From a virus (taxonomy: Duplodnaviria > Caudoviricetes): 64,000 bases of DNA. This document shows positions 3,401 through 61,222 of the stretch, one piece after another. The position numbers and the translations under genes were made by a program. Under the pieces are notes generated by a model. That model saw only the letters and a list, made by a program, of their open reading frames with translations, had not been told where the DNA came from and did no database searches. The stretch covers positions 32,001 to 96,000 of the IMG/VR virus record IMGVR_UViG_3300043013_000026. One strand, given 5' to 3'. Numbering within the stretch: position 1 is the first letter of the stretch; every line of letters starts with the position of its first letter.

Positions 3401-6400
3401 AGGTTGAAATCGGTAACAAATACGATGGCGGCGAAACTGACAAAGGCGTTCTCCGTATTGAGGACGAGGCGAAGGGCGAATCAGAGACTACTCTCTTTAC
3501 AACATTCGCTGAGTTCGCCAACTTTTTGTTCGCTTGCTCGCCGTTATTGAAGCCATACGCCGGCACTGAGTCTCAACTTATTGCTGACAGTGCAAATCTT
3601 ACACGTGACCATCAGTATTGGCTGTTCAACTCAGGTTCTGACCGTTACAACGTTTACTACTACAATCCTGCTACTTCTAAATTTGAGAAAGTAAGTAAAA
3701 TTCCGACTGCATGGGGTAGCGATGGTAGAGCATACGCTTATGGTAGTCCGAAACTTACTGAGCAGTTGGCCGGCGTAACCATTACGGTTGATACGGTTAA
3801 TGGCTCTCAGAGCATGACACTGGAAGACGCATTGAGTACTCTCGGTACGTCTGACATGAATGTGGTTAATGATTGCTTCTCAAAGGCGAGAGTGGCTTAT
3901 TTTGCCAACCATGCTTCAGCCTACATCGACACCAAAGACGTTATCTTCCACCAGTGTCAAATCAAGTTGCTTGGTGGTACCGATAACCGTACCAAGAACA
4001 CTTACTACTGCATTGACCCGGCTATTGACTTGTTGGTACGTTTGAAACAGGATGACTTGGATACTATCTTGAAGACCGATAACCAAGGTCGTCAAACCAA
4101 GCCTTACTATGTACTTGAACATACTAAGGATGCAAGTGGCAGCAACTACTGGAACGGTGAAAACAACGTTCTCTACACGTTGATCGAGCGTGCATATCCT
4201 GAACGTATGCGCACAATGATGCGTAACATGTTCGCTCAGATGGCACAGATTGCAGGTAGCGTTGAAAACTACTTCCAACAACGTTTCTACTGGGTTCAAG
4301 AGTACTTCCCTGCTGTTGCATATAACGAAACCAGCCGCCTTCTCTACGAGGTTGCTCAGGTTAAGTTGATGAATGGCTTGATTGATGTGAGCCAAGACCC
4401 TATCACTCAGGCAGTAGGCGACCAGCTGGAGTGCGAAAAGCAATTTATGAACCAGCGTCTTCCGATGTTGATGTCATGGTGCGAGTATGAAACCGGTGGC
4501 GATGGTACAGTCAGCTTCCGTTCAGTAAACAGTGTCAGCGGTCAATCACCGACATACGACATTGAATACACTGCATATCAATACATTTATCCGAAGCTTG
4601 CAGTCGGCGGTTACATCGCTACTCTGTATGCCAAGATTGATGGCGAATGGGTAAGCCAAGGTAGCGACCCGTATCTGTGTGCTCCCGGCGAAACGGTACG
4701 ACTGGTTATCGCCAGCACCGACTCTAATACCCAGTTTACACTGAGATGGATGCACTACGCTAAGAGCATTGGCAATCTTGGTACATTGCCTTGCGGTGAA
4801 GACGGTAGCGTCACTATCACAGGTAAGCGTTTGCGTAAACTGGAATGTTGGTCTGAAGACGGTGTGCCTATTGAGTTCCACCCGAAAGGCTTGGTAATCT
4901 CAAATTGCCGTAACTTGGAGGAAGTGAACTTGACTAACGCTTCGGCTTTCTCAGGAACATTCTCAGCCGACCTTCCACGTTTAAGAAAGCTCCTCCTCAG
5001 TGGCTCTGCTTACACCAGTGCGTCGCTTCCTAAGACTTCTACGTTGACTGAGGTCGAATTGCCGAGTACCGTCAATGCTATTACGGTTGACGGTCAGCCT
5101 AACCTTGCCAGTCTGACGATTGATGGTTTGTCAAGTTTGCGTACCCTCCGTATCGTTGGCAAGCATAAAATTCAGAAACAGACGCAATCAATCGTTCAGC
5201 TCGCTTACTCTCAGGCTGCAAACGCAAACAGCGTTCAGATTGACAATGTAAGCTGGACCGGCGTATCGGTTGACGTGATGATGTGGTTGCAGAAGTTGAA
5301 AGCTTCTTTGACCGGAACTATCAGCTTGACCGGAACTGTGACTTTTGCTAATAAGGTTGCGCTGGTTGGCATATACGGAAACATCGACTCTACTTCAAAT
5401 TCGTTGTATCTCAGCTATACCAAGCGTAGTATTAACAGTATAACTGTCAATGGCTTAACGTATATTTCAGAAACCGGAACATACCAATATGAAGTCGTTT
5501 GTTCGCCTTCAACCGGTAACGACGTGGCTATCAAGGATGGTAAGCTGGATGTTCTCTGGGAAATCGATGATGCCGCTAAAGCTTATGCTTCTTTCACTGA
5601 CTCTGTTAACGGAGTTTTGAAAGTCACTAAGCTGGATGAAAGCGGCACTGACACTCGATATGTTGCTCAGTGTACCGTGACTAAGACGGGTGGCACAACC
5701 CTTGTATCAGAGTTCCAAGTAGGCTTCTATCGCCGAATCCCGAAGATTGGCGACTTCGCTTATGCGGATGGCACTTTTGATGACCAATATCTGAAAGATA
5801 AGACGCTGGTTGGTATCATCTACAAAATTGATGAGATGTGGCAAGGTGATGGCGATGCTGAACCGACTATTTACACCGGTTATAACAAACCTACCGAAAC
5901 ATACAAAGCAAGTCACAAACTTGTTGGTTATCAGCTTAGTATCGACTGCAAAGAAAATCTTCCTTGCAAGAGCACTGATGGCTTCATCAATACCGGTAGC
6001 ACTGTTTGGGGTCTTTATCCGTCCAACGACTCGAATGGTCATACTGCAATTCAGAATGAGATTATCGCCGCAACCGGTATCTCAAGTATCTTTGACCTTC
6101 CGGGCATCAGTAATATCAGTAGCCGAGGTCTGTCTGGCGGTACAAGTAATGACTATGTGACAACCGGCAACTACATCGACACCAATGAAGACGACGGTTT
6201 CAAGGATTACAGTACCGGTTCTGGCTGTGTGACCGACTGGAGTGGCAAGAATAAGACGCTTGCAATCGTGAAACACGCAACTCAAATCATCTCAGCTTAC
6301 CTGCTGTCTGAAGCTAATGAGTCAGTTGCAACTAACTATGATGACGATGACGGCGTAAATCACGAGTTCGCTGAAGTTCCGACTACCGTTGAGGAAATGG

Positions 6401-7029
6401 CAAACGCTATGGAGATACTTTACAAGGCTAACAATAACCTGACGAAGTATCAACAGTTCCTTTACCCTGCCGGCTTTGGATGTTATCTCTATCAGCCTAC
6501 CGTTAAGGACGGCGAGGAGCTTGACCCTCAGTATGCTTCGACAAACTGGTATCTTCCCGCTTGTGGTGAAGAATATCGTCAGTATAGCTTCTTTGCTAAA
6601 TCAAGAACAGGCGGCATGGGTGATACTTATTCTGTTGGTCAGAATACATCTCCAGCTGCAAGTGTCATTGACAAAATGATTACTGACGCATTGGCTTCAG
6701 AGGAGTCAAATGAAATAAATTTGAATGTTTCTCCCTCTCATGTGGAGTACAGAAACTATACTGGTATAGAGATGGCTGCAATTAACCGCTATTTCCATAG
6801 CCTTGTAGAGGCTGAGAAACCGATTTATTCGATGGCTCTTTGGCGTGCTTTGGTGGCAAATGGTTCCGCACCGTTCACCCAGCACAGCACTGGCTACCAT
6901 TGGTCATCCACCGAGTACTCATCCAACTACTCGTGGTTCGTCTATTTCGGCTATGGTTATAGCTACTACTACAGCAAGTGCTTCACTTTCGTTGTTCGCC
7001 CTGCTGTAGCCTATCAGTTTTTTCTTTAA
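472..7029 (+). CDS. giant tail fibre / receptor-binding-like protein, DGR target 1 (LamG-like, CotH-kinase-like, LRR-like segments, C-terminal CLec-type variable domain)
   Basis: ~2185-aa ORF (likely ATG 472); C-terminal WYLPA...HWSSTE...VVRPAVA motif; 3' end matches the TR except at adenines. Confidence 0.85.
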   Translation: MAKRTIIDSAIPSIDTPWDDGKNAYSGKAVEDFIKSQLSSKIGYAVIPQEKDTDGYYHIWGFASQSAYNDYLTDTVGGASLRLLNVAIPLLEEQGGVSNIVTLTRNSAASLVTSKAVASVNVSYLWQQYNPVTKETTDQDEDATIVVSCRTQNSSGTWGSWDSSKSFSVNIQSGQTKTIDLSSLLTSDATYQVRLVATGETSGISASPVTMTIVYSNVSATYDGSIATAYKGGSIQLPFRITGSVQKQLRIKINGYTKNYTLGTTTYTDNTYGAAVTQTEFGLARGAVKAEAWIAFGDNYSAETEHQEFQFIYIPEGDTVTTPILAVTDVVSEFENWTRTTIFRYAIYNPQKDSTTVRLTLQDRDTGQIYIQKDQECVNGTAYEFDENFAMEYEGDDQPTTINAQVTFTNTSGVTYGNSINFTVDNSENFAPTKGANVIVSAEKKTITIDDVSYELNDLLSDTEDTNSGWSSNAETDATGASVNVPVLSIAAGNRVTIPYELFDDNTGRNDGGVEGSITMEFDIKVKNIVGDAEIIDASADFNGGYTGLKFYPTRAVCLSRNNYTEELADVNFQEEVREHIAINIIRNLRGEGMNLVRIYVNGKSNRSFIYTDEDYFTPIGEKGAQNIIIGSDEADVDVYGIRIYKGQQLGSTQIQNDYMAGMPTIEDKKLFKRYNSIYNGSEIGYDLCNAMGLNTILRKIPEGGHYPSRENQSKQTNVTIDVRIYNERGNADSLDMKHSGTFVGMTDKGQGTSAKGYYWWNITDGFEDDVEIELADYNASDPTHYTSDGKYYRKKSYFNSLDGTSQVYASKYELEDGRGGITKLVGKANYASPMQSHKLGAIWMYDELWQTLVNDGSDDRPVLSNTHVTCYEKPFLCFYQIGNGNPIFCGFQTWGSGKGDKKTFGYDKKKSPGYLCISGADNGAIAALFQMPWNVSQNADGAWEGNIYAKSVTINTGDVKNGYCYKSGTSDTLSFEVEIGNKYDGGETDKGVLRIEDEAKGESETTLFTTFAEFANFLFACSPLLKPYAGTESQLIADSANLTRDHQYWLFNSGSDRYNVYYYNPATSKFEKVSKIPTAWGSDGRAYAYGSPKLTEQLAGVTITVDTVNGSQSMTLEDALSTLGTSDMNVVNDCFSKARVAYFANHASAYIDTKDVIFHQCQIKLLGGTDNRTKNTYYCIDPAIDLLVRLKQDDLDTILKTDNQGRQTKPYYVLEHTKDASGSNYWNGENNVLYTLIERAYPERMRTMMRNMFAQMAQIAGSVENYFQQRFYWVQEYFPAVAYNETSRLLYEVAQVKLMNGLIDVSQDPITQAVGDQLECEKQFMNQRLPMLMSWCEYETGGDGTVSFRSVNSVSGQSPTYDIEYTAYQYIYPKLAVGGYIATLYAKIDGEWVSQGSDPYLCAPGETVRLVIASTDSNTQFTLRWMHYAKSIGNLGTLPCGEDGSVTITGKRLRKLECWSEDGVPIEFHPKGLVISNCRNLEEVNLTNASAFSGTFSADLPRLRKLLLSGSAYTSASLPKTSTLTEVELPSTVNAITVDGQPNLASLTIDGLSSLRTLRIVGKHKIQKQTQSIVQLAYSQAANANSVQIDNVSWTGVSVDVMMWLQKLKASLTGTISLTGTVTFANKVALVGIYGNIDSTSNSLYLSYTKRSINSITVNGLTYISETGTYQYEVVCSPSTGNDVAIKDGKLDVLWEIDDAAKAYASFTDSVNGVLKVTKLDESGTDTRYVAQCTVTKTGGTTLVSEFQVGFYRRIPKIGDFAYADGTFDDQYLKDKTLVGIIYKIDEMWQGDGDAEPTIYTGYNKPTETYKASHKLVGYQLSIDCKENLPCKSTDGFINTGSTVWGLYPSNDSNGHTAIQNEIIAATGISSIFDLPGISNISSRGLSGGTSNDYVTTGNYIDTNEDDGFKDYSTGSGCVTDWSGKNKTLAIVKHATQIISAYLLSEANESVATNYDDDDGVNHEFAEVPTTVEEMANAMEILYKANNNLTKYQQFLYPAGFGCYLYQPTVKDGEELDPQYASTNWYLPACGEEYRQYSFFAKSRTGGMGDTYSVGQNTSPAASVIDKMITDALASEESNEINLNVSPSHVEYRNYTGIEMAAINRYFHSLVEAEKPIYSMALWRALVANGSAPFTQHSTGYHWSSTEYSSNYSWFVYFGYGYSYYYSKCFTFVVRPAVAYQFFL
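6883..7010 (+). repeat. DGR variable repeat VR1
   Basis: Ungapped match to 7715-7842; 18 mismatches, all opposite TR adenines. Confidence 0.97.
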
Positions 7030-7061
7030 TCTTCCTGGCGAGTTGCCTCTGGCAACTCGCC
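7023..7061 (+). promoter_or_regulatory. DGR target-recognition element downstream of VR1: TCTTTAATCTTCCTG plus hairpin GGCGAGTTGCC-TCT-GGCAACTCGCC
   Basis: Perfect 11-bp stem (7037-7061); the same 15-mer plus a hairpin follows VR2. Confidence 0.75.
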
Positions 7062-7089
7062 TATAACTGTTAAATAAATTTAAAAATCA

Positions 7090-7605
7090 ATGGAAATCCA
7101 AGGCAAACAAATGTCTTTTGAAGAGGTATGCGACCTGTTTGATACTGGCGTACCCACCGAACCCGGAGAGCAAGTTATTCTCTCTAACGATGAAATTAAC
7201 CGCGCTCGCCGCAACAAAAGAGCAGCACAAAAGAAGGCTGCTGGCTTTCAAAACACGCCCATTTACAGGTCGTTACATTCTTCAATGAGACTGCTTATAG
7301 AAATTGTACAACTTATGCCGAGGAAGACTGTCAAGATTACTGACATGCTTCTTCAAAACTATGCTGAGATGATCCGATGGACCGCTTCGGCATACAATCA
7401 CCGTGATCCGCTACTTAAACAAAATGCTATCGAAGAATCTATTTCTTTAATGAGCGTGATAAAGATCATGCTCAACTGTATGTCCGGTCTCGTTAGCGAT
7501 AAGAAGCACAAGCAGCTGACTGCATCATTTGATGCCGTGACGCGCCAACTCGTAGCATGGCGCAGCTCATTAGAACAAAGCGAGGGTCCCGATGATGAAG
7601 CCTGA
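7090..7605 (+). CDS. avd: DGR accessory variability determinant (Avd-like four-helix bundle)
   Basis: Lies between VR and TR/RT; TPIY...MPRK...RQLVAW pattern typical of Avd; helical and basic. Confidence 0.8.
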   Translation: MEIQGKQMSFEEVCDLFDTGVPTEPGEQVILSNDEINRARRNKRAAQKKAAGFQNTPIYRSLHSSMRLLIEIVQLMPRKTVKITDMLLQNYAEMIRWTASAYNHRDPLLKQNAIEESISLMSVIKIMLNCMSGLVSDKKHKQLTASFDAVTRQLVAWRSSLEQSEGPDDEA

Positions 7606-55375: not shown

Positions 55376-55663
55376 TTAGTTTAGGTGGAAGTTCGCTTCC
55401 ATTGCAGAGATGACTTGATTGCCAATCGTGGCAAAATAATGTTCACGAGGCCCGTTTCCGGTCTGGATGAGGCTACGTATATTGCCGTTAGCCATATCTT
55501 CAACTTTGAAATGATATGGAGCTTCCACAATCATTTTACAAATGGCATTAAATAGCACATCCTTGGGGTTGGAACTGGTGACAGAGCCGATACTAATCTG
55601 CTCTCCGTCATCAGCCAACCACACAAGGCGATACTCTTTAGCTGGTTTTCTTATTTGCGCCAT
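55376..55663 (-). CDS. hypothetical protein
   Basis: ORF. Confidence 0.55.
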   Translation of the reverse strand: MAQIRKPAKEYRLVWLADDGEQISIGSVTSSNPKDVLFNAICKMIVEAPYHFKVEDMANGNIRSLIQTGNGPREHYFATIGNQVISAMEANFHLN

Positions 55664-56706
55664 TCAGCAATCTTACGGTTAATGTTAATGCCGTTGTCTT
55701 TGATGAGCTGCTTCATCACGCCGAACAAGCGCCAACCCTCATCAGAGTAGAGGTTAGCCTTCTCATCCAGCTTAGTGAGAGAAGCTGACTGCGACAAGAA
55801 GCGACCAGCGTCTGAACGGAACTTAGCGCTGTGGAACAGGATGAGGTTGCGCATAGTGAAGTATGCACCGGCACCCTTGTAAGCATCCTTGAACTCGTTA
55901 GCCATCGGGATTGTGTAAGATACCCAGGTTTTCTTCACGAGAGCGTAGAAGGAAACGGTGTTGACGTACAGCTCAGTGGCGTTCTTAGACGCTTTGATTT
56001 TGAGCGCAAGGTTGAGAAGCGGCTGAGTGACCTTTGCCGGAACGTCCTCGACAAAGATATTCTGACCCTTCAGACGGATGTACGGAACTCGCTTGCAGCG
56101 TTTCTTCGGCATGACGCGAATGTGGTCACGGAGCTTTTCGATGTAATCCATAGCAATGAGATATACACGCTCCTTGTTGAAGTAGAGGTTACGCTGGGCG
56201 AAATTCTCAGCGTCACCACGGGTTTCCATCTTCGACTGAGCCAACAGTTCCTCCACGATCATCTTCCACTGGTAGGCATAGCCCTTGTTCTGGAGTGCTT
56301 GGAGGAAGTTGCCATCAGCAAGCATGTGGAAGACCTGTGCCATCACCCAGCGACGGAACAGCTGAGGATTGCGAACCGTTCCGCCTCCGAGAATAGAGGC
56401 GAAGATTGGGTCGTCATCAGGAACGACGGTGAGTTGTCCGTTGGTCAGACGGGCTACGATTTCTTGACCGGTGGCACCCTTCATGCTGAAAAGGTTGTCC
56501 ACGTTCACACCGGCTTTGCGGAGTGCTTCGATTTTAGCTTCTGCTTTCATATCCTTACGATTGGGTTTTGATTGACCTACGACGGTCGGGTGAATTGTTC
56601 CGAGATTACTGTCAGCGCCAATTACTACGCCAACTGCTACATGGGTTGTTTCCGGGATTGCGAACTCTGCGCCACATTTAGGGCATACGATTTTAGTCTT
56701 GCTCAT
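55651..56706 (-). CDS. hypothetical protein with N-terminal Zn ribbon (CPKC)
   Basis: 351-aa ORF downstream of the RT array. Confidence 0.75.
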   Translation of the reverse strand: MSKTKIVCPKCGAEFAIPETTHVAVGVVIGADSNLGTIHPTVVGQSKPNRKDMKAEAKIEALRKAGVNVDNLFSMKGATGQEIVARLTNGQLTVVPDDDPIFASILGGGTVRNPQLFRRWVMAQVFHMLADGNFLQALQNKGYAYQWKMIVEELLAQSKMETRGDAENFAQRNLYFNKERVYLIAMDYIEKLRDHIRVMPKKRCKRVPYIRLKGQNIFVEDVPAKVTQPLLNLALKIKASKNATELYVNTVSFYALVKKTWVSYTIPMANEFKDAYKGAGAYFTMRNLILFHSAKFRSDAGRFLSQSASLTKLDEKANLYSDEGWRLFGVMKQLIKDNGININRKIAEWRK

Positions 56707-56717
56707 TGTTATAAGAT

Positions 56718-57194
56718 TTATTTGTTGTTATTAATTTGTTTATCCTTGTTGTTTTCAATCCATTTCTTCAGGATGATAAGAGATGGATGTGTACTTGATT
56801 GCCAGAACCATAATCCGCTGGCAAAACTATTCCAATCTAACGCGCTTTGAATTAGTTGGCAGAGTATGAAAAGCTCCAACTCTACCTGCGCTTCCTCACG
56901 ACGAATACCGTATAGCATATCCTCGTCAGCAAGCTTCTTCTCTGGGAGGGCTCGGAAATAGCTGCGAGTCTTCTGCTCACTGCGCTGAGAAGGTACGCTG
57001 TGATAGAAGCGTTCATACAACCTCTCAATCTCTTTCAGAGGTTCATTAGACGGAGCGCATCCGAGATTGCCCTCATACTTTCCGTCTTTGATGACATATC
57101 TGCCATCAACTCTCAGGCTTCGATGCTCGAAACTAACTGAGAAGCGAGCGCCTTTAGCGACGCGACCAAGTGTTTCCTTATAGATGTTACTCAT
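56718..57194 (-). CDS. hypothetical protein immediately downstream of the hairpin array
   Basis: Likely start MSNIY, 31 nt after the last array unit. Confidence 0.7.
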   Translation of the reverse strand: MSNIYKETLGRVAKGARFSVSFEHRSLRVDGRYVIKDGKYEGNLGCAPSNEPLKEIERLYERFYHSVPSQRSEQKTRSYFRALPEKKLADEDMLYGIRREEAQVELELFILCQLIQSALDWNSFASGLWFWQSSTHPSLIILKKWIENNKDKQINNNK

Positions 57195-57225
57195 ATAAAT
57201 TAAAATTGTGCAACTCAAGTCAGTG

Positions 57226-58344
57226 ACGTATAGCTTTATTCAAACTGATCGGGTCAGGTTTGTTGCCTCCTGAGCTTGGACTGTGTGTCTCAAGCTCGGA
57301 GGTCATACAAGTCCTGAGTAAGTGAATTTTTGACTCCTTGTTGCGAAATGTTACGTTACATATCCACGTCCTCATCAGCGTGGCGCATTACTGTAATCAC
57401 CATGATTAAGGAGCTGGTGATTGAAGGCGGGCGCCTGCAAGTAGGCAAGGCGCCCGCCTCTCTTTGAACCAGCTACGATGAAGTGGCTGACCTCGGACGA
57501 AACCTTTGCGCTTAGTAATGTATAGCTATCAAACTCACGATGCGTTGCTTTACAGGGGCGATTTGAAACAGTATTGGCTTCCTGGGCACCGGCGTGAAGC
57601 GGGTGACAACCGGAAGCACGCCGGTTCCCAGCGATGATTAAATACTGTTCACAATAAATTTGAGTTTCTTTAGCTACGGGCTGACGCATTTCAGTGATGA
57701 TGTGGATGGCGTTGTATGTATCTGCATCAAGGCGATAATAAAGAGTAAGAGCCTTGTACGCGACGATCGAGGTGTTGATCGTCGCGAACAGGTTAACGTC
57801 CTCTTTAATTAAAGTTGCCATCATCATTCATCGACCGCATACACGGTTGTTCAAAATTGTTAGCTGAGTGATTATCCGTATGTTGCTATATCACGTTGAT
57901 CCGATTGCGGATATGTGACGTTGAGACTGTCCAGCCTGGACGTCGAAAACGTCATCCCAGCCGCATAAGGTGAATGTGACAATCGTTCAACTAACTGCTG
58001 CATACCCAGCTTATTGATTGGCGTATAGAGTGCCATGTTTCTGTACCGTTTTGATGTGAGTCATCAGTGGATACGGGTACCTGGAAGGCTTGATATTGGC
58101 ATGTAAGGTACCCGTATAAACCGATGAATCCTGAAATATTCTATTCTTCCAATCAAACCCGCATGTCCGGGTTTTCCAGTAGAAGTCATATCGCATTGTA
58201 TGTTTCTATATCAATTTGATGTAAACTCGAATTGCCAGATCGGTGAAGCACTGGGACAGATAGTCAGCCGTCCCAGGGCTCTCACCGATCTGGTTAAGAC
58301 TCGATGTTACTGAATTGTGCAATCATTCTTCTACTCCTTCATAC
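57226..58344 (-). ncRNA. array of seven structured ~160-bp units (putative RT template RNAs)
   Basis: Seven long hairpins (57254-57317, 57412-57474, 57567-57649, 57740-57806, 57906-57965, 58061-58127, 58227-58304), each next to a degenerate motif; units closed by covarying end pairs; strand inferred from flanking genes. Confidence 0.75.
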
Positions 58345-58358
58345 TAAGGTTTCGGGAA

Positions 58359-59621
58359 TTACAACGACTCTACCAAAGTTAAGTACGCTTCACGATTAGT
58401 AACCATAGCGTTCTGCATACAACTGATAGTGAGATAGCCCTCGATTTCTTGCGGAGTTTTCTCGCGGTTAGCCTTCACATTGCGACCGAGGCCACGCTGG
58501 ATACAACCGCCAGACTTGCTTGCTACATAGCCGAGACCGCCAATCTTCGTCTTACCGGTCATCACTGCCCTCAAGCAATCCATCACAAACTTATCCAGTT
58601 CGTGAATATCACTTTTGACGTTGCATATCGGTAAAATCTGAGTAGCCCAACTAAACTCACCATCGCCTTTGTAGAGATAACGGTTCACTGCATTGACAGC
58701 CTTACGTAGAGTTACGTCAGGCTTGCGAATTGTCCGGGATAAAATTTCCTTCTGGAAGGTTTTGAGACGAGTGCTACTGAGTGATATGTCAGAGCCTTTG
58801 ATTGAATATCCCAGAAATTTAAACCAGTGAGTCGGTGTGAGATATTCAACTTTCTTCGGATTTAGTGACATGTTCATTTGTTCAAGCTCAGCCCTCAAAA
58901 TGAACATTGCCTCCTCGTAATCCGGTCCGACAAACAGCATGTCGTCGGAGTAGCGTATATACTCACCGTTCAGCTCGTCTATCCTTGAATCAATGTGGTA
59001 GAGGAGCACGTCAGCGAGCCAGGAAGCAACGGCACAACCCTGCTTTAGTGATTGGTAAGCCTCATGCAGTTCTCCGTCCGGCGAGAAGTACCAATCACTG
59101 TTGTAATACTTTCTCAGAACGTCGATTAACGCAGAATGTCCATATTTGTTTTCAACCTTATGGAACGCTTGCTCAATGAAGCAGAGAGGAACGCTGTCGA
59201 AGTATTTGCTGAGGTCCGACTTCCAGCCGATAACCTCATCCTTCGCTTTGCAAATCTCTTTGGAAATCTCCTTCACAATTTTTCCACAGCCCATACCTTT
59301 TTGATAAGAGCGGCATTTCGGATGAACCATCTCAGGCATCAACTCAAACAGCAGGTCGTTAGCGATACTGAGAAGTACGCGGTCAATCGGCTCGTTGATA
59401 TAGACGGTTCGGAAATCGCCGTTGTCCTTGGGGATTTGAGCGGTGTGCGGCGGCGCTATTTGATAGCGACCATCGCGAATAGCCTCATACATCTCAAGCC
59501 TCACTTCAGGCTTAGTGAGCTGGTAGAGGTCTCGTTTCGGGATGTGCTTTCCAACGCCTTTCTCGATGGCATATTCCCAGCGAGGAAGCTCGAAAAACTT
59601 TTCTAATATTATGTCGCTCAT
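58359..59621 (-). CDS. stand-alone reverse transcriptase (non-DGR, unclassified)
   Basis: IPKDNGDFRTV, DLSKYFDSV, LKQGCAVASWLADV, YIRYSDD, LNPKK, FKFLGY. Confidence 0.93.
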   Translation of the reverse strand: MSDIILEKFFELPRWEYAIEKGVGKHIPKRDLYQLTKPEVRLEMYEAIRDGRYQIAPPHTAQIPKDNGDFRTVYINEPIDRVLLSIANDLLFELMPEMVHPKCRSYQKGMGCGKIVKEISKEICKAKDEVIGWKSDLSKYFDSVPLCFIEQAFHKVENKYGHSALIDVLRKYYNSDWYFSPDGELHEAYQSLKQGCAVASWLADVLLYHIDSRIDELNGEYIRYSDDMLFVGPDYEEAMFILRAELEQMNMSLNPKKVEYLTPTHWFKFLGYSIKGSDISLSSTRLKTFQKEILSRTIRKPDVTLRKAVNAVNRYLYKGDGEFSWATQILPICNVKSDIHELDKFVMDCLRAVMTGKTKIGGLGYVASKSGGCIQRGLGRNVKANREKTPQEIEGYLTISCMQNAMVTNREAYLTLVESL

Positions 59622-60541: not shown

Positions 60542-61222
60542 TTAAACCTTACATGCTACAGCAGGGCGAACAACGTAAGTGTTGTACTTGTTGTAGTAGC
60601 CGCCGCTATAACCATTGCCGAAATTGACGTACCACGAGTTGTAGGATGAGTTCTCGGTGGATGACCAATGGTATTCCTTGCGAAGAGGAGAACCACCTAC
60701 CGCTTCCAGTGCGGCATTGACAGCTTTGACATTTAGGAGAATGAGATATAATTGGGCGAGGGATGGGATGTATTGATTAGGCTGGAGATCAATCTCTGGA
60801 TTGAGCGCTTCACCGTAATCAGCGGTGTTATCTTCGCCTCTCCAGTCTGAGATAGCATCGAAGAAATCGCTGTGGAAGAACTCAGGCGTACCACATTCTT
60901 CAACGGTAGTAAGAGCTACTTCTTCACCATCGCAAGCATCGTGAAGCGCAACGGTAGCGATTTTGTCACCCATCCTGACAGCCACTCCGACCACAGAATC
61001 CTTAATAGCTTCCACGTTTTCAAGGACCGTCAGTGAGCCATTGTTGAGTACGTAATAAACACCGTCAGTGTTGTTGAGCTGAGAGGGAGCCACTTGAGAA
61101 ACGGGTGTCTTACCATTGCCTATAATAAAATCAAAGCACTCTTTTGCTTTGGCGACATCATAATTGAGTCGTTCTACGAGTGTAGCCCTGAAAGACTGCA
61201 CCGGATTAAGTTTTATTTCCAT
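60542..61222 (-). CDS. DGR target 2 (DUF1566/CLec-like domain protein)
   Basis: YIPSLAQL...YHWSSTE...VVRPAVA; 3' end matches the TR. Confidence 0.9.
   Translation of the reverse strand: MEIKLNPVQSFRATLVERLNYDVAKAKECFDFIIGNGKTPVSQVAPSQLNNTDGVYYVLNNGSLTVLENVEAIKDSVVGVAVRMGDKIATVALHDACDGEEVALTTVEECGTPEFFHSDFFDAISDWRGEDNTADYGEALNPEIDLQPNQYIPSLAQLYLILLNVKAVNAALEAVGGSPLRKEYHWSSTENSSYNSWYVNFGNGYSGGYYNKYNTYVVRPAVACKV
60555..60673 (-). repeat. DGR variable repeat VR2
   Basis: Matches the TR except at adenines, plus one extra NNC codon. Confidence 0.93.

Follow-up and report, generated by a model that had tools for sequence, protein, structure and literature searches.

Reverse transcriptases (RTs) of the UG27 type belong to class 2 of the UG/Abi RTs and are common in phages from the human gut (Mestre et al. 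2022, PMC9226505). They are accompanied by partner proteins from two clusters, 346 and 337, both of unknown fold, and a putative structured ncRNA 'with three long stem-loops' has been described in the same gap, between the RT gene and the gene of cluster 346, which is the subject of this analysis (PMC9226505). UG27 was reported to have no association with defence islands (PMC9226505). The text of a preprint from September 2026 (bioRxiv 10.64898/2026.09.22.753630) contains the terms 'UG27' (74 occurrences), 'ncRNA array' (10), 'pseudoknot' (12), 'cDNA' (24) and 'hairpin' (33).

The locus described here was found in a stretch of 64,000 nucleotides of phage DNA, which was analysed as a whole (the window) and to which all positions refer unless a related locus is named. 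Three of its genes are required for the following description.

58359-59621, minus strand: UG27 reverse transcriptase gene, 420 aa; PADLOC model RT_UG27, E 4.8e-221, residues 1-420 of 420
56718-57194, minus strand: RTas346 helper gene, 158 aa from the ATG at 57194; PADLOC model RTas346, E 2.6e-61
55651-56706, minus strand: RTas337 helper gene, 351 aa, with CPKC near the N-terminus; PADLOC model RTas337, E 8.2e-120

The gene order on this single strand is RT, array, RTas346 and RTas337, with the helper genes directly downstream. A gene-free gap of 1.15 kb holds positions 57226-58344, and the neighbouring genes all run on the minus strand. The next-best PADLOC model for the RT is RT_UG26 (7e-36), followed by Drt9/UG28 and UG17; the Pfam family RVT_1 is matched at 3.5e-19, and the YSDD core is invariant among 17 homologues. 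RTas346 and RTas337 also adjoin the RT gene in a related locus (L004). The AlphaFold model is confident for RTas346 (pLDDT 88) and fair for RTas337 (pLDDT 76.5), but neither model has a fold match in the PDB at E 0.001 or better, and no Pfam or PHROG family was matched by the helper proteins. An identical RT (100%) occurs on two IMG/VR viral contigs, and a total of 80 related viral loci could be retrieved. Neighbouring genes match PHROG families. With its full-length match to the RT profile, helper genes from clusters 346 and 337, a structured gap between them and the RT gene, and its location in a phage genome, the locus is a UG27 system (class 2 UG/Abi RT) as defined by Mestre et al. (2022). 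The first-pass annotation had compared the array units with the a1/a2 inverted repeats of retrons. As far as membership in the retrons is concerned, this analogy fails, since the RT is of the UG27 type (4.8e-221, while the retron RT model reaches only 1.3e-11) and since the array is located downstream, not upstream, of the RT gene. Over the array region, Tandem Repeats Finder, a tRNA scan and Rfam returned nothing, and a megablast search against a phage collection gave no match. At a distance of 0.9 kb from the UG27 RT gene, a gene for 226 aa (60542-61222) shows a weak Pfam match to Lcl_C (C-type-lectin-like, E 9.5e-4).

The gap encodes seven back-to-back structured RNA units, each of ~150-175 nt. 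On the plus strand, the elements of a unit follow each other in the order 5′ strand of a helix P1, 3 nt, a 5-mer, a motif, a hairpin P2, the tetranucleotide TRAA, 3′ strand of P1, and a small stem P3. The motif reads T..CT.TA on the plus strand, followed by 6-7 nt and YGAT; it is almost invariant and single-stranded, with the T, CT and A positions being invariant. P2 is a long, unit-specific hairpin in the centre of each unit, and the P2 region has a length of 97 nt in unit 3 and of 95 nt in unit 7 versus 76-81 nt in the others. In the following list, unit boundaries run from P1 to P3, and the minus strand is given because we infer that the RNA is of this sense, for reasons discussed below.

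58177-58349, minus strand (presumed): unit 7, the first after the RT stop codon, covariance-model match of 68.8 bits; P1 58178-58196 with 58317-58335, 5-mer GTATG 58198-58202, motif 58203-58220, P2 58221-58315, P3 58336-58339 with 58346-58349, loop CATACT 58340-58345
58013-58174, minus strand (presumed): unit 6, assigned by motif and fold, below the E 0.01 threshold of the model; P1 58014-58031 with 58138-58156, 5-mer CCATG 58033-58037, motif 58038-58055, P2 58056-58136, P3 (7 bp) 58155-58161 with 58168-58174, loop CATGTC 58162-58167
57858-58010, minus strand (presumed): unit 5, covariance-model match; P1 57859-57876 with 57978-57995, 5-mer GTATG 57878-57882, motif 57883-57900, P2 57901-57976, P3 57997-58000 with 58007-58010, loop CATACC 58001-58006
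57694-57849, minus strand (presumed): unit 4, covariance-model match; P1 57695-57710 with 57817-57833, 5-mer GTATG 57714-57718, motif 57719-57736, P2 57737-57815, P3 (6 bp) 57832-57837 with 57844-57849, loop CATACA 57838-57843
57522-57695, minus strand (presumed): unit 3, covariance-model match; P1 57523-57537 with 57661-57676, 5-mer ATGCG 57540-57544, motif 57545-57562, P2 57563-57659, P3 57680-57684 with 57691-57695, loop CGCATT 57685-57690
57366-57512, minus strand (presumed): unit 2, covariance-model match; P1 57367-57379 with 57486-57499, 5-mer GCGCA 57383-57387, motif 57388-57406, P2 57407-57484, partner of the 5-mer TGCGC 57507-57511
57208-57361, minus strand (presumed): unit 1, the last before RTas346, covariance-model match; P1 57209-57223 with 57330-57345, 5-mer ACGTA 57226-57230, motif 57231-57249, P2 57250-57328, P3 57348-57351 with 57358-57361, loop TACGTT 57352-57357

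Neighbouring units abut with 0-8 nt between them. Between the stop codon of the RT gene and the start codon of RTas346, the array leaves only ~15 nt or less free on either side. Two of the units deviate from the common pattern. In unit 2, a P3 stem was not found in the usual register, and P3 is therefore not universal. The counterpart of unit 2 in a related locus (L008) has a P3 which, judged by eye, looks weak as well. In unit 6, only four of the five pairs between 5-mer and partner are formed, with a C-T mismatch at the outer end. The 5-mer of unit 6 and its partner (CCATG/CATGT, starting at 58033) differ by one base from their counterpart in L008 (ACATG/CATGT), where all 5 bp are formed, and the broken pair thus looks like a single recent substitution.

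As a result of the search for homologues, the number of units available for comparison could be largely expanded. At E 1e-20 or better, 4,500 proteins are related to the RT. An alignment of 17 RT homologues was used to fetch 80 IMG/VR loci, the RTs of which show 67-100% identity. The motif (T..CT..A, 6-7 nt, YGAT) occurs 3-7 times per locus antisense to the RT gene, as compared to 0-2 times in sense direction, and has a period of ~160-175 nt across the loci. From 57 units, a covariance model was built which contains only P3 and both parts of P1, the 5-mer helix being omitted. A total of 96 units, distributed over the window and 21 loci, are found by this model, including six of the seven window units (unit 6 is below the threshold of E 0.01), and all its matches are antisense to the RT gene except for one weak match of 23.7 bits. 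As the MAFFT alignment of the motif-defined units was ragged at both ends, pair counts were made on the model alignment; a comparison of all columns against each other, with G-T pairs allowed, was too noisy. P1 and P3 are only 64-76% paired on the model alignment, which is probably due to alignment slippage. In two loci, model matches were observed downstream of the helper genes (three units at 7945-8478 of L066, one at 7683-7847 of L067), which indicates that some UG27 loci carry a second array.

According to the first-pass annotation, the 5-mer which starts each motif has its reverse complement on the other side of the hairpin, and the two sequences change together. The fourteen strings were indeed found at the positions reported, with 5 bp in six pairs and 4 bp in unit 6. 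The separation of ~120 nt, with higher values in units 3 and 7, was also reproduced (126, 124, 145, 124, 123, 128 and 142 nt in units 1-7), and the longer spacing coincides with the longest central hairpin regions. That 5-mers and partners change together is seen with RNAalifold on the seven units as well as in the alignment of 96 homologous units. RNAalifold returns the 5-bp helix as the sole consensus structure, with compensatory changes at six of the six predicted pairs.

Several controls were made for the specificity of this pairing. When foreign 5-mers are used, 8.4% of the trials give an exact reverse complement within the same search window of 90 nt, from which binomial arithmetic gives a chance of ~2e-6 for six exact partners among seven units. 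For the 333 non-identical motif-defined units of the 80 IMG/VR loci, an exact partner is found 95-185 nt downstream in 80.5% of the cases. With shifted 5-mers, the same 333 units yield mostly 3-19%; the value of 45% at a shift of 8 nt is explained by the neighbouring P1 helix. In a smaller set of units, for which pairing was not required, 78% contain an exact partner of their own 5-mer versus ~8% for foreign 5-mers, and 26 different 5-mers occur together with an exact partner. The 5-mers follow the pattern N-Y-R-Y-R, and changes thus occur mostly by paired transitions.

The first-pass annotation had proposed a covariation check across homologous loci, and the pairing that it describes stands up to a check of this kind. 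On the model alignment (96 distinct units from 22 sources, with a model that does not contain this helix), pairs are formed in 96.5% of the cells of the 5-mer helix, and for each of the five pairs there are 30-44 sequences in which both sides have changed. The covariation score of the whole structure is 0.742, while shuffled alignments give 0.26 (none of 500 reaches the observed score) and slid partners give 0.08-0.18. The helix is almost purely Watson-Crick, with 5 G-T and 10 A-C among ~480 cells. The covarying 5-base pairing in the units is thereby confirmed as real. It is true that GTATG/CATAC is common to three of the seven window units, which are thus not independent evidence, and the pairing might have been attributed to a chance match or to a by-product of repeated sequence. 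However, 26 different 5-mers, each with its exact partner, the match of 78% for own versus 8% for foreign 5-mers, and the failure of all 500 shuffles to reach the observed covariation speak against this. Having been refuted by the results with shifted 5-mers, foreign 5-mers and shuffles, such an origin is practically out of the question.

The helix does not occur in isolation. Bases just before the partner 5-mer pair with bases which follow it after one further nucleotide, a T in 89% of the units, and this stem is P3. Its three loop-proximal pairs are Watson-Crick in 81-84% of the units, with four pair types at each of them, and a shift of the register by one or two positions abolishes the signal. 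In the window, P3 consists of 4-7 bp in six units, and its loop of 6 nt is made up of the partner 5-mer and the T. P1 is a two-part helix of 10-13 bp, with an outer part of 5-7 bp and an inner part of 4-6 bp, which are separated by an internal loop with a conserved CTCA opposite CTTG. The 5′ strand of P1 corresponds to the 15-19 nt upstream of the 5-mer and pairs with a segment of the same unit which is located just before P3. The duplex energy of P1 is -15.4 kcal/mol with its own partner, versus -7.2 kcal/mol with the partners from other units or other loci and -5.8 kcal/mol with the respective segment of the previous unit. The own partner was the better one in 258 of 259 units. P1 is a real helix and it closes each unit.

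As the strands are arranged in the order P1 5′ strand, 5-mer, P1 3′ strand, partner, the 5-bp helix crosses P1 and a pseudoknot is formed. The connectors between the P3 arms and the 5-mer are 0 nt and 1 nt long (the T found in 89%), and the 5-bp helix is an H-type (loop-to-strand) pseudoknot beside the invariant motif T..CT.TA. The conserved fold is thus one in which P3 is clamped by the pseudoknot to the strand immediately adjoining the invariant motif, within a domain that is closed by P1.

This topology changes the picture drawn by the first-pass annotation in several respects. There, the 5-bp helix was considered to be the terminal stem which closes the unit; this is not the case, since its 3′ strand consists of five of the six bases in the P3 loop and since it crosses P1. 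The proposal that each unit is an independent closed domain is retained insofar as the units fold separately and have a variable central hairpin, but closure is by P1 and not by the 5-bp helix. Similarly, the spacing of 24-35 nt between the units as originally delimited is correct, but what had been taken for linkers is the 3′ arm of P3 together with the 5′ strand of P1 from the next unit. Constructs which are cut at the original unit borders would contain only one half each of P1 and P3; for the cloning of single units, the true borders, from P1 to P3, matter. The 5-bp helix is the best-conserved pairing and is located beside the invariant motif, which makes it an obvious target for mutation, both when the site and the manner of initiation of DNA synthesis by the UG27 RT are of interest and when the central hairpin is to be swapped for a designed template.

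We attempted to determine which of the two strands is the RNA. Whole-unit folding energies are lower on the plus strand for all seven window units. When the helices are considered separately, P1 energies favour the RT-sense strand (70 versus 19 cluster representatives), while P2 energies favour the opposite one (76 versus 15). On the plus strand, P2 hairpins contain 45 G-T versus 23 A-C, and P1 shows the reverse bias. Controls with mismatched partners and with shuffled hairpins went in the same directions and reached more than half of the size, so that most of the strand bias reflects base composition. Substitution events within clusters of near-identical units do not show a clear bias (21:25 for P1, 35:22 for P2), and counts of G-T versus A-C on the model alignment were 62:65 for P1, 5:10 for the 5-bp helix, and 32:18 for P3. 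With the five approaches in conflict, wobble counts are ambiguous as to the RNA strand. The region is represented, with small shares, in nine public sequencing runs, and the three 'RNA' runs and one DNA run compared with it are low-depth contigs, uninformative as to strand.

Two other features of the locus bear on the strand indirectly. A sigma-70-like promoter was not found on either strand, and a terminator scan yielded one terminator-like site, fewer than in shuffled sequences. With the gap taken up by the array, promoter and terminator of an antisense transcript would have to be located within coding sequence. In RT-sense direction, the elements appear in the order P3 arm, one A, 5-mer, P3 arm, long loop, partner. 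In the classical H-type arrangement, the deep groove of a second stem of 5 bp is bridged by a first loop of 1 nt (Pleij's rule). We take it that only the RT-sense strand has the 1-nt connector as the first loop over the deep groove, while on the plus strand it would presumably have to cross the shallow groove, which is unfavourable. Operon packing and the loop geometry of the pseudoknot favour the RT-sense strand as the RNA.

We consider it likely that the locus produces a seven-unit pseudoknotted RNA array in RT-sense direction which serves as a scaffold for the RT, with DNA synthesis starting at the motif and P2 being copied into hairpin DNA. The RNA would be made on the RT-sense strand (the minus strand of the window) as part of the operon transcript. 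On this strand, P3 would come first, with its loop reading A plus the 5-mer, and the pseudoknot would be formed with the classical first loop of 1 nt. Pseudoknot and P1 may then represent the scaffold that is bound by the RT. The pseudoknot would set the start of DNA synthesis at the invariant motif, and the P2 hairpin would be copied into a short hairpin DNA.

The same pseudoknotted fold could also be that of an antisense transcript from the plus strand, convergent with the RT gene. Wobble counts are compatible with such an RNA (on the plus strand, 32 G-T versus 18 A-C in P3 and 45 versus 23 in P2), but the space outside the coding sequences does not accommodate a promoter or a terminator, the scan yielded no promoter-like site, and the loop geometry of the pseudoknot would be unfavourable according to Pleij's rule. 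In addition, the characterised ncRNAs of UG/Abi RTs and of retrons lie, as far as is known, on the strand of the RT, and we consider an antisense RNA to be unlikely. A plus-strand RNA is also assumed when the 5-bp helix is interpreted as a terminal stem similar to a1/a2 of retrons, with self-priming from a 2′-OH and with linkers of 24-35 nt that are truly single-stranded. What speaks for it is that the helix exists and is found near the ends of the units as originally delimited, that folding energies are lower on the plus strand in all seven units, and that P2 has more G-T than A-C on that strand. However, this difference in energy is for the most part due to base composition, the 3′ strand of the helix is inside a hairpin loop, and the supposed linkers pair with the interior of the unit in a helix that crosses the 5-bp helix. 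The RT does not belong to the retron RTs, its gene precedes the array, and the 1-nt connector would again be placed over the shallow groove, unfavourably so by the same rule. We regard this interpretation as quite improbable; a functional analogy to a1/a2 would fit P1 better than the 5-mer helix.

Two further interpretations concern the nearly complete absence of wobble pairs from the helix. The pseudoknot might be a built-in mimic of a primer-template, in which, in RT-sense direction, the 5-mer of the P3 loop resembles a primer with its 3′ end abutting the invariant motif. DNA would then start from a hydroxyl of the last loop nucleotide, resulting in a branched RNA-DNA as in retrons, or from a nick at this position. 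A helix that is near-pure Watson-Crick and has a fixed length of 5 bp would be accounted for in this way and, if true, retron-like branched RNA-DNA would be possible in a non-retron RT. We consider such a primer mimic to be improbable. The other interpretation is that pairing acts not in RNA but in single-stranded DNA, either cDNA or replication intermediates. An almost purely Watson-Crick helix (5 G-T and 10 A-C in ~480 cells) would be explained by this as well, and P1 shows no wobble asymmetry. On the other hand, the combination of a conserved single-stranded motif with an H-type geometry is typical of protein-bound RNA, and we hardly expect pairing in DNA to be the explanation. The RT-sense RNA scaffold thus remains our preferred reading.

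The presumed template, P2, was analysed separately. A BLAST comparison of the array with the whole 109-kb genome for DGR-like or donor-like targets gave only chance matches of 12-14 nt; as the hairpins have no similarity elsewhere in this genome, a DGR-like or donor-like role is unlikely. The base of P2 keeps a sequence that is specific for the position in the array, e.g. GAGCTGG...CCAGCTC in unit 2 (57412-57420 and 57470-57478), and this is also kept in L008, L009, and L016, although their RTs are only 70-76% identical. The conservation of position-specific sequences indicates that the hairpins are old paralogues and not free-running variable inserts. Palindromes of 6 bp are found in four of the seven P2 stems (GGCGCC in unit 2, 57407-57484; CGATCG in unit 4, 57737-57815; GACGTC in unit 5, 57901-57976; GGTACC in unit 6, 58056-58136), with a rough chance expectation of about two of seven. 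Apical stems of the CCWGG or CCGG type occur in many related units. Isolated 1x1 mismatches in the P2 stems of 259 units, from positions 57250-58315 of the window and from loci L008-L085, comprise 45 G-T, 23 A-C, and 171 others, which suggests that P2 hairpins may tolerate or even conserve non-wobble mismatches.

An unusual case is L004, with an RT that is 62% identical, where the entire gap between RT and RTas346 (6294-7520 of that locus, plus strand, RT-sense) is a stop-free frame of 408 codons. The frame matches no Pfam or PADLOC family, its composition is unlike that of a real protein, and three model matches are located antisense inside it. In a set of 78 loci, the arrays have slightly fewer stop triplets in RT-sense direction than expected (0.043 versus 0.053), and the longest open run has a mean of 99 codons versus 82 in shuffles, where the maximum was 173.

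With the UG27 systems from gut and rumen phages, the locus shares a full-length UG27 RT, both helpers, the gene order, the structured gap, and the location in a phage genome. It differs from the description by Mestre et al. (2022) in having a tandem array of seven units instead of one ncRNA with three long stem-loops. The resemblance to retron msr-msd RNA with its a1/a2 inverted repeats consists of a structured RNA that is dedicated to the RT, a long-range helix by which it is closed (P1 in this case), a central hairpin which is possibly the template, and a helix beside the likely start site. In contrast to retrons, the RT is from another clade, the RNA follows the RT gene as a series of seven units, and the 5-mer helix is a loop pseudoknot rather than a terminal duplex. 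An invariant branching G was not found at the comparable place, the last loop base in RT-sense direction being A in 56% and G in 36%.

DRT2 (UG2), DRT9 (UG28), DRT3, and DRT10 resemble UG27 in being UG/Abi RTs with a dedicated structured ncRNA. These systems have one ncRNA each and act in host defence, while UG27 is phage-borne, the number of different units ranging from 3 to about 9. DRT10 is reported to make tandem-repeat DNA in a telomerase-like way. The core of telomerase RNA consists of a template, a pseudoknot, and a boundary helix. By analogy only, the conserved single-stranded stretch between the pseudoknot helix and the stem may be called telomerase-like, but the presumed template is a long hairpin and not a short repeat.

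The UG27 system as such is already published (Mestre et al. 2022, PMC9226505) and, by all signs, array and pseudoknot are published as well (2026 preprint, bioRxiv 10.64898/2026.09.22.753630). The locus does not add a new kind of system; what it presents is an RT carried by a phage together with seven hairpin units that differ from one another.
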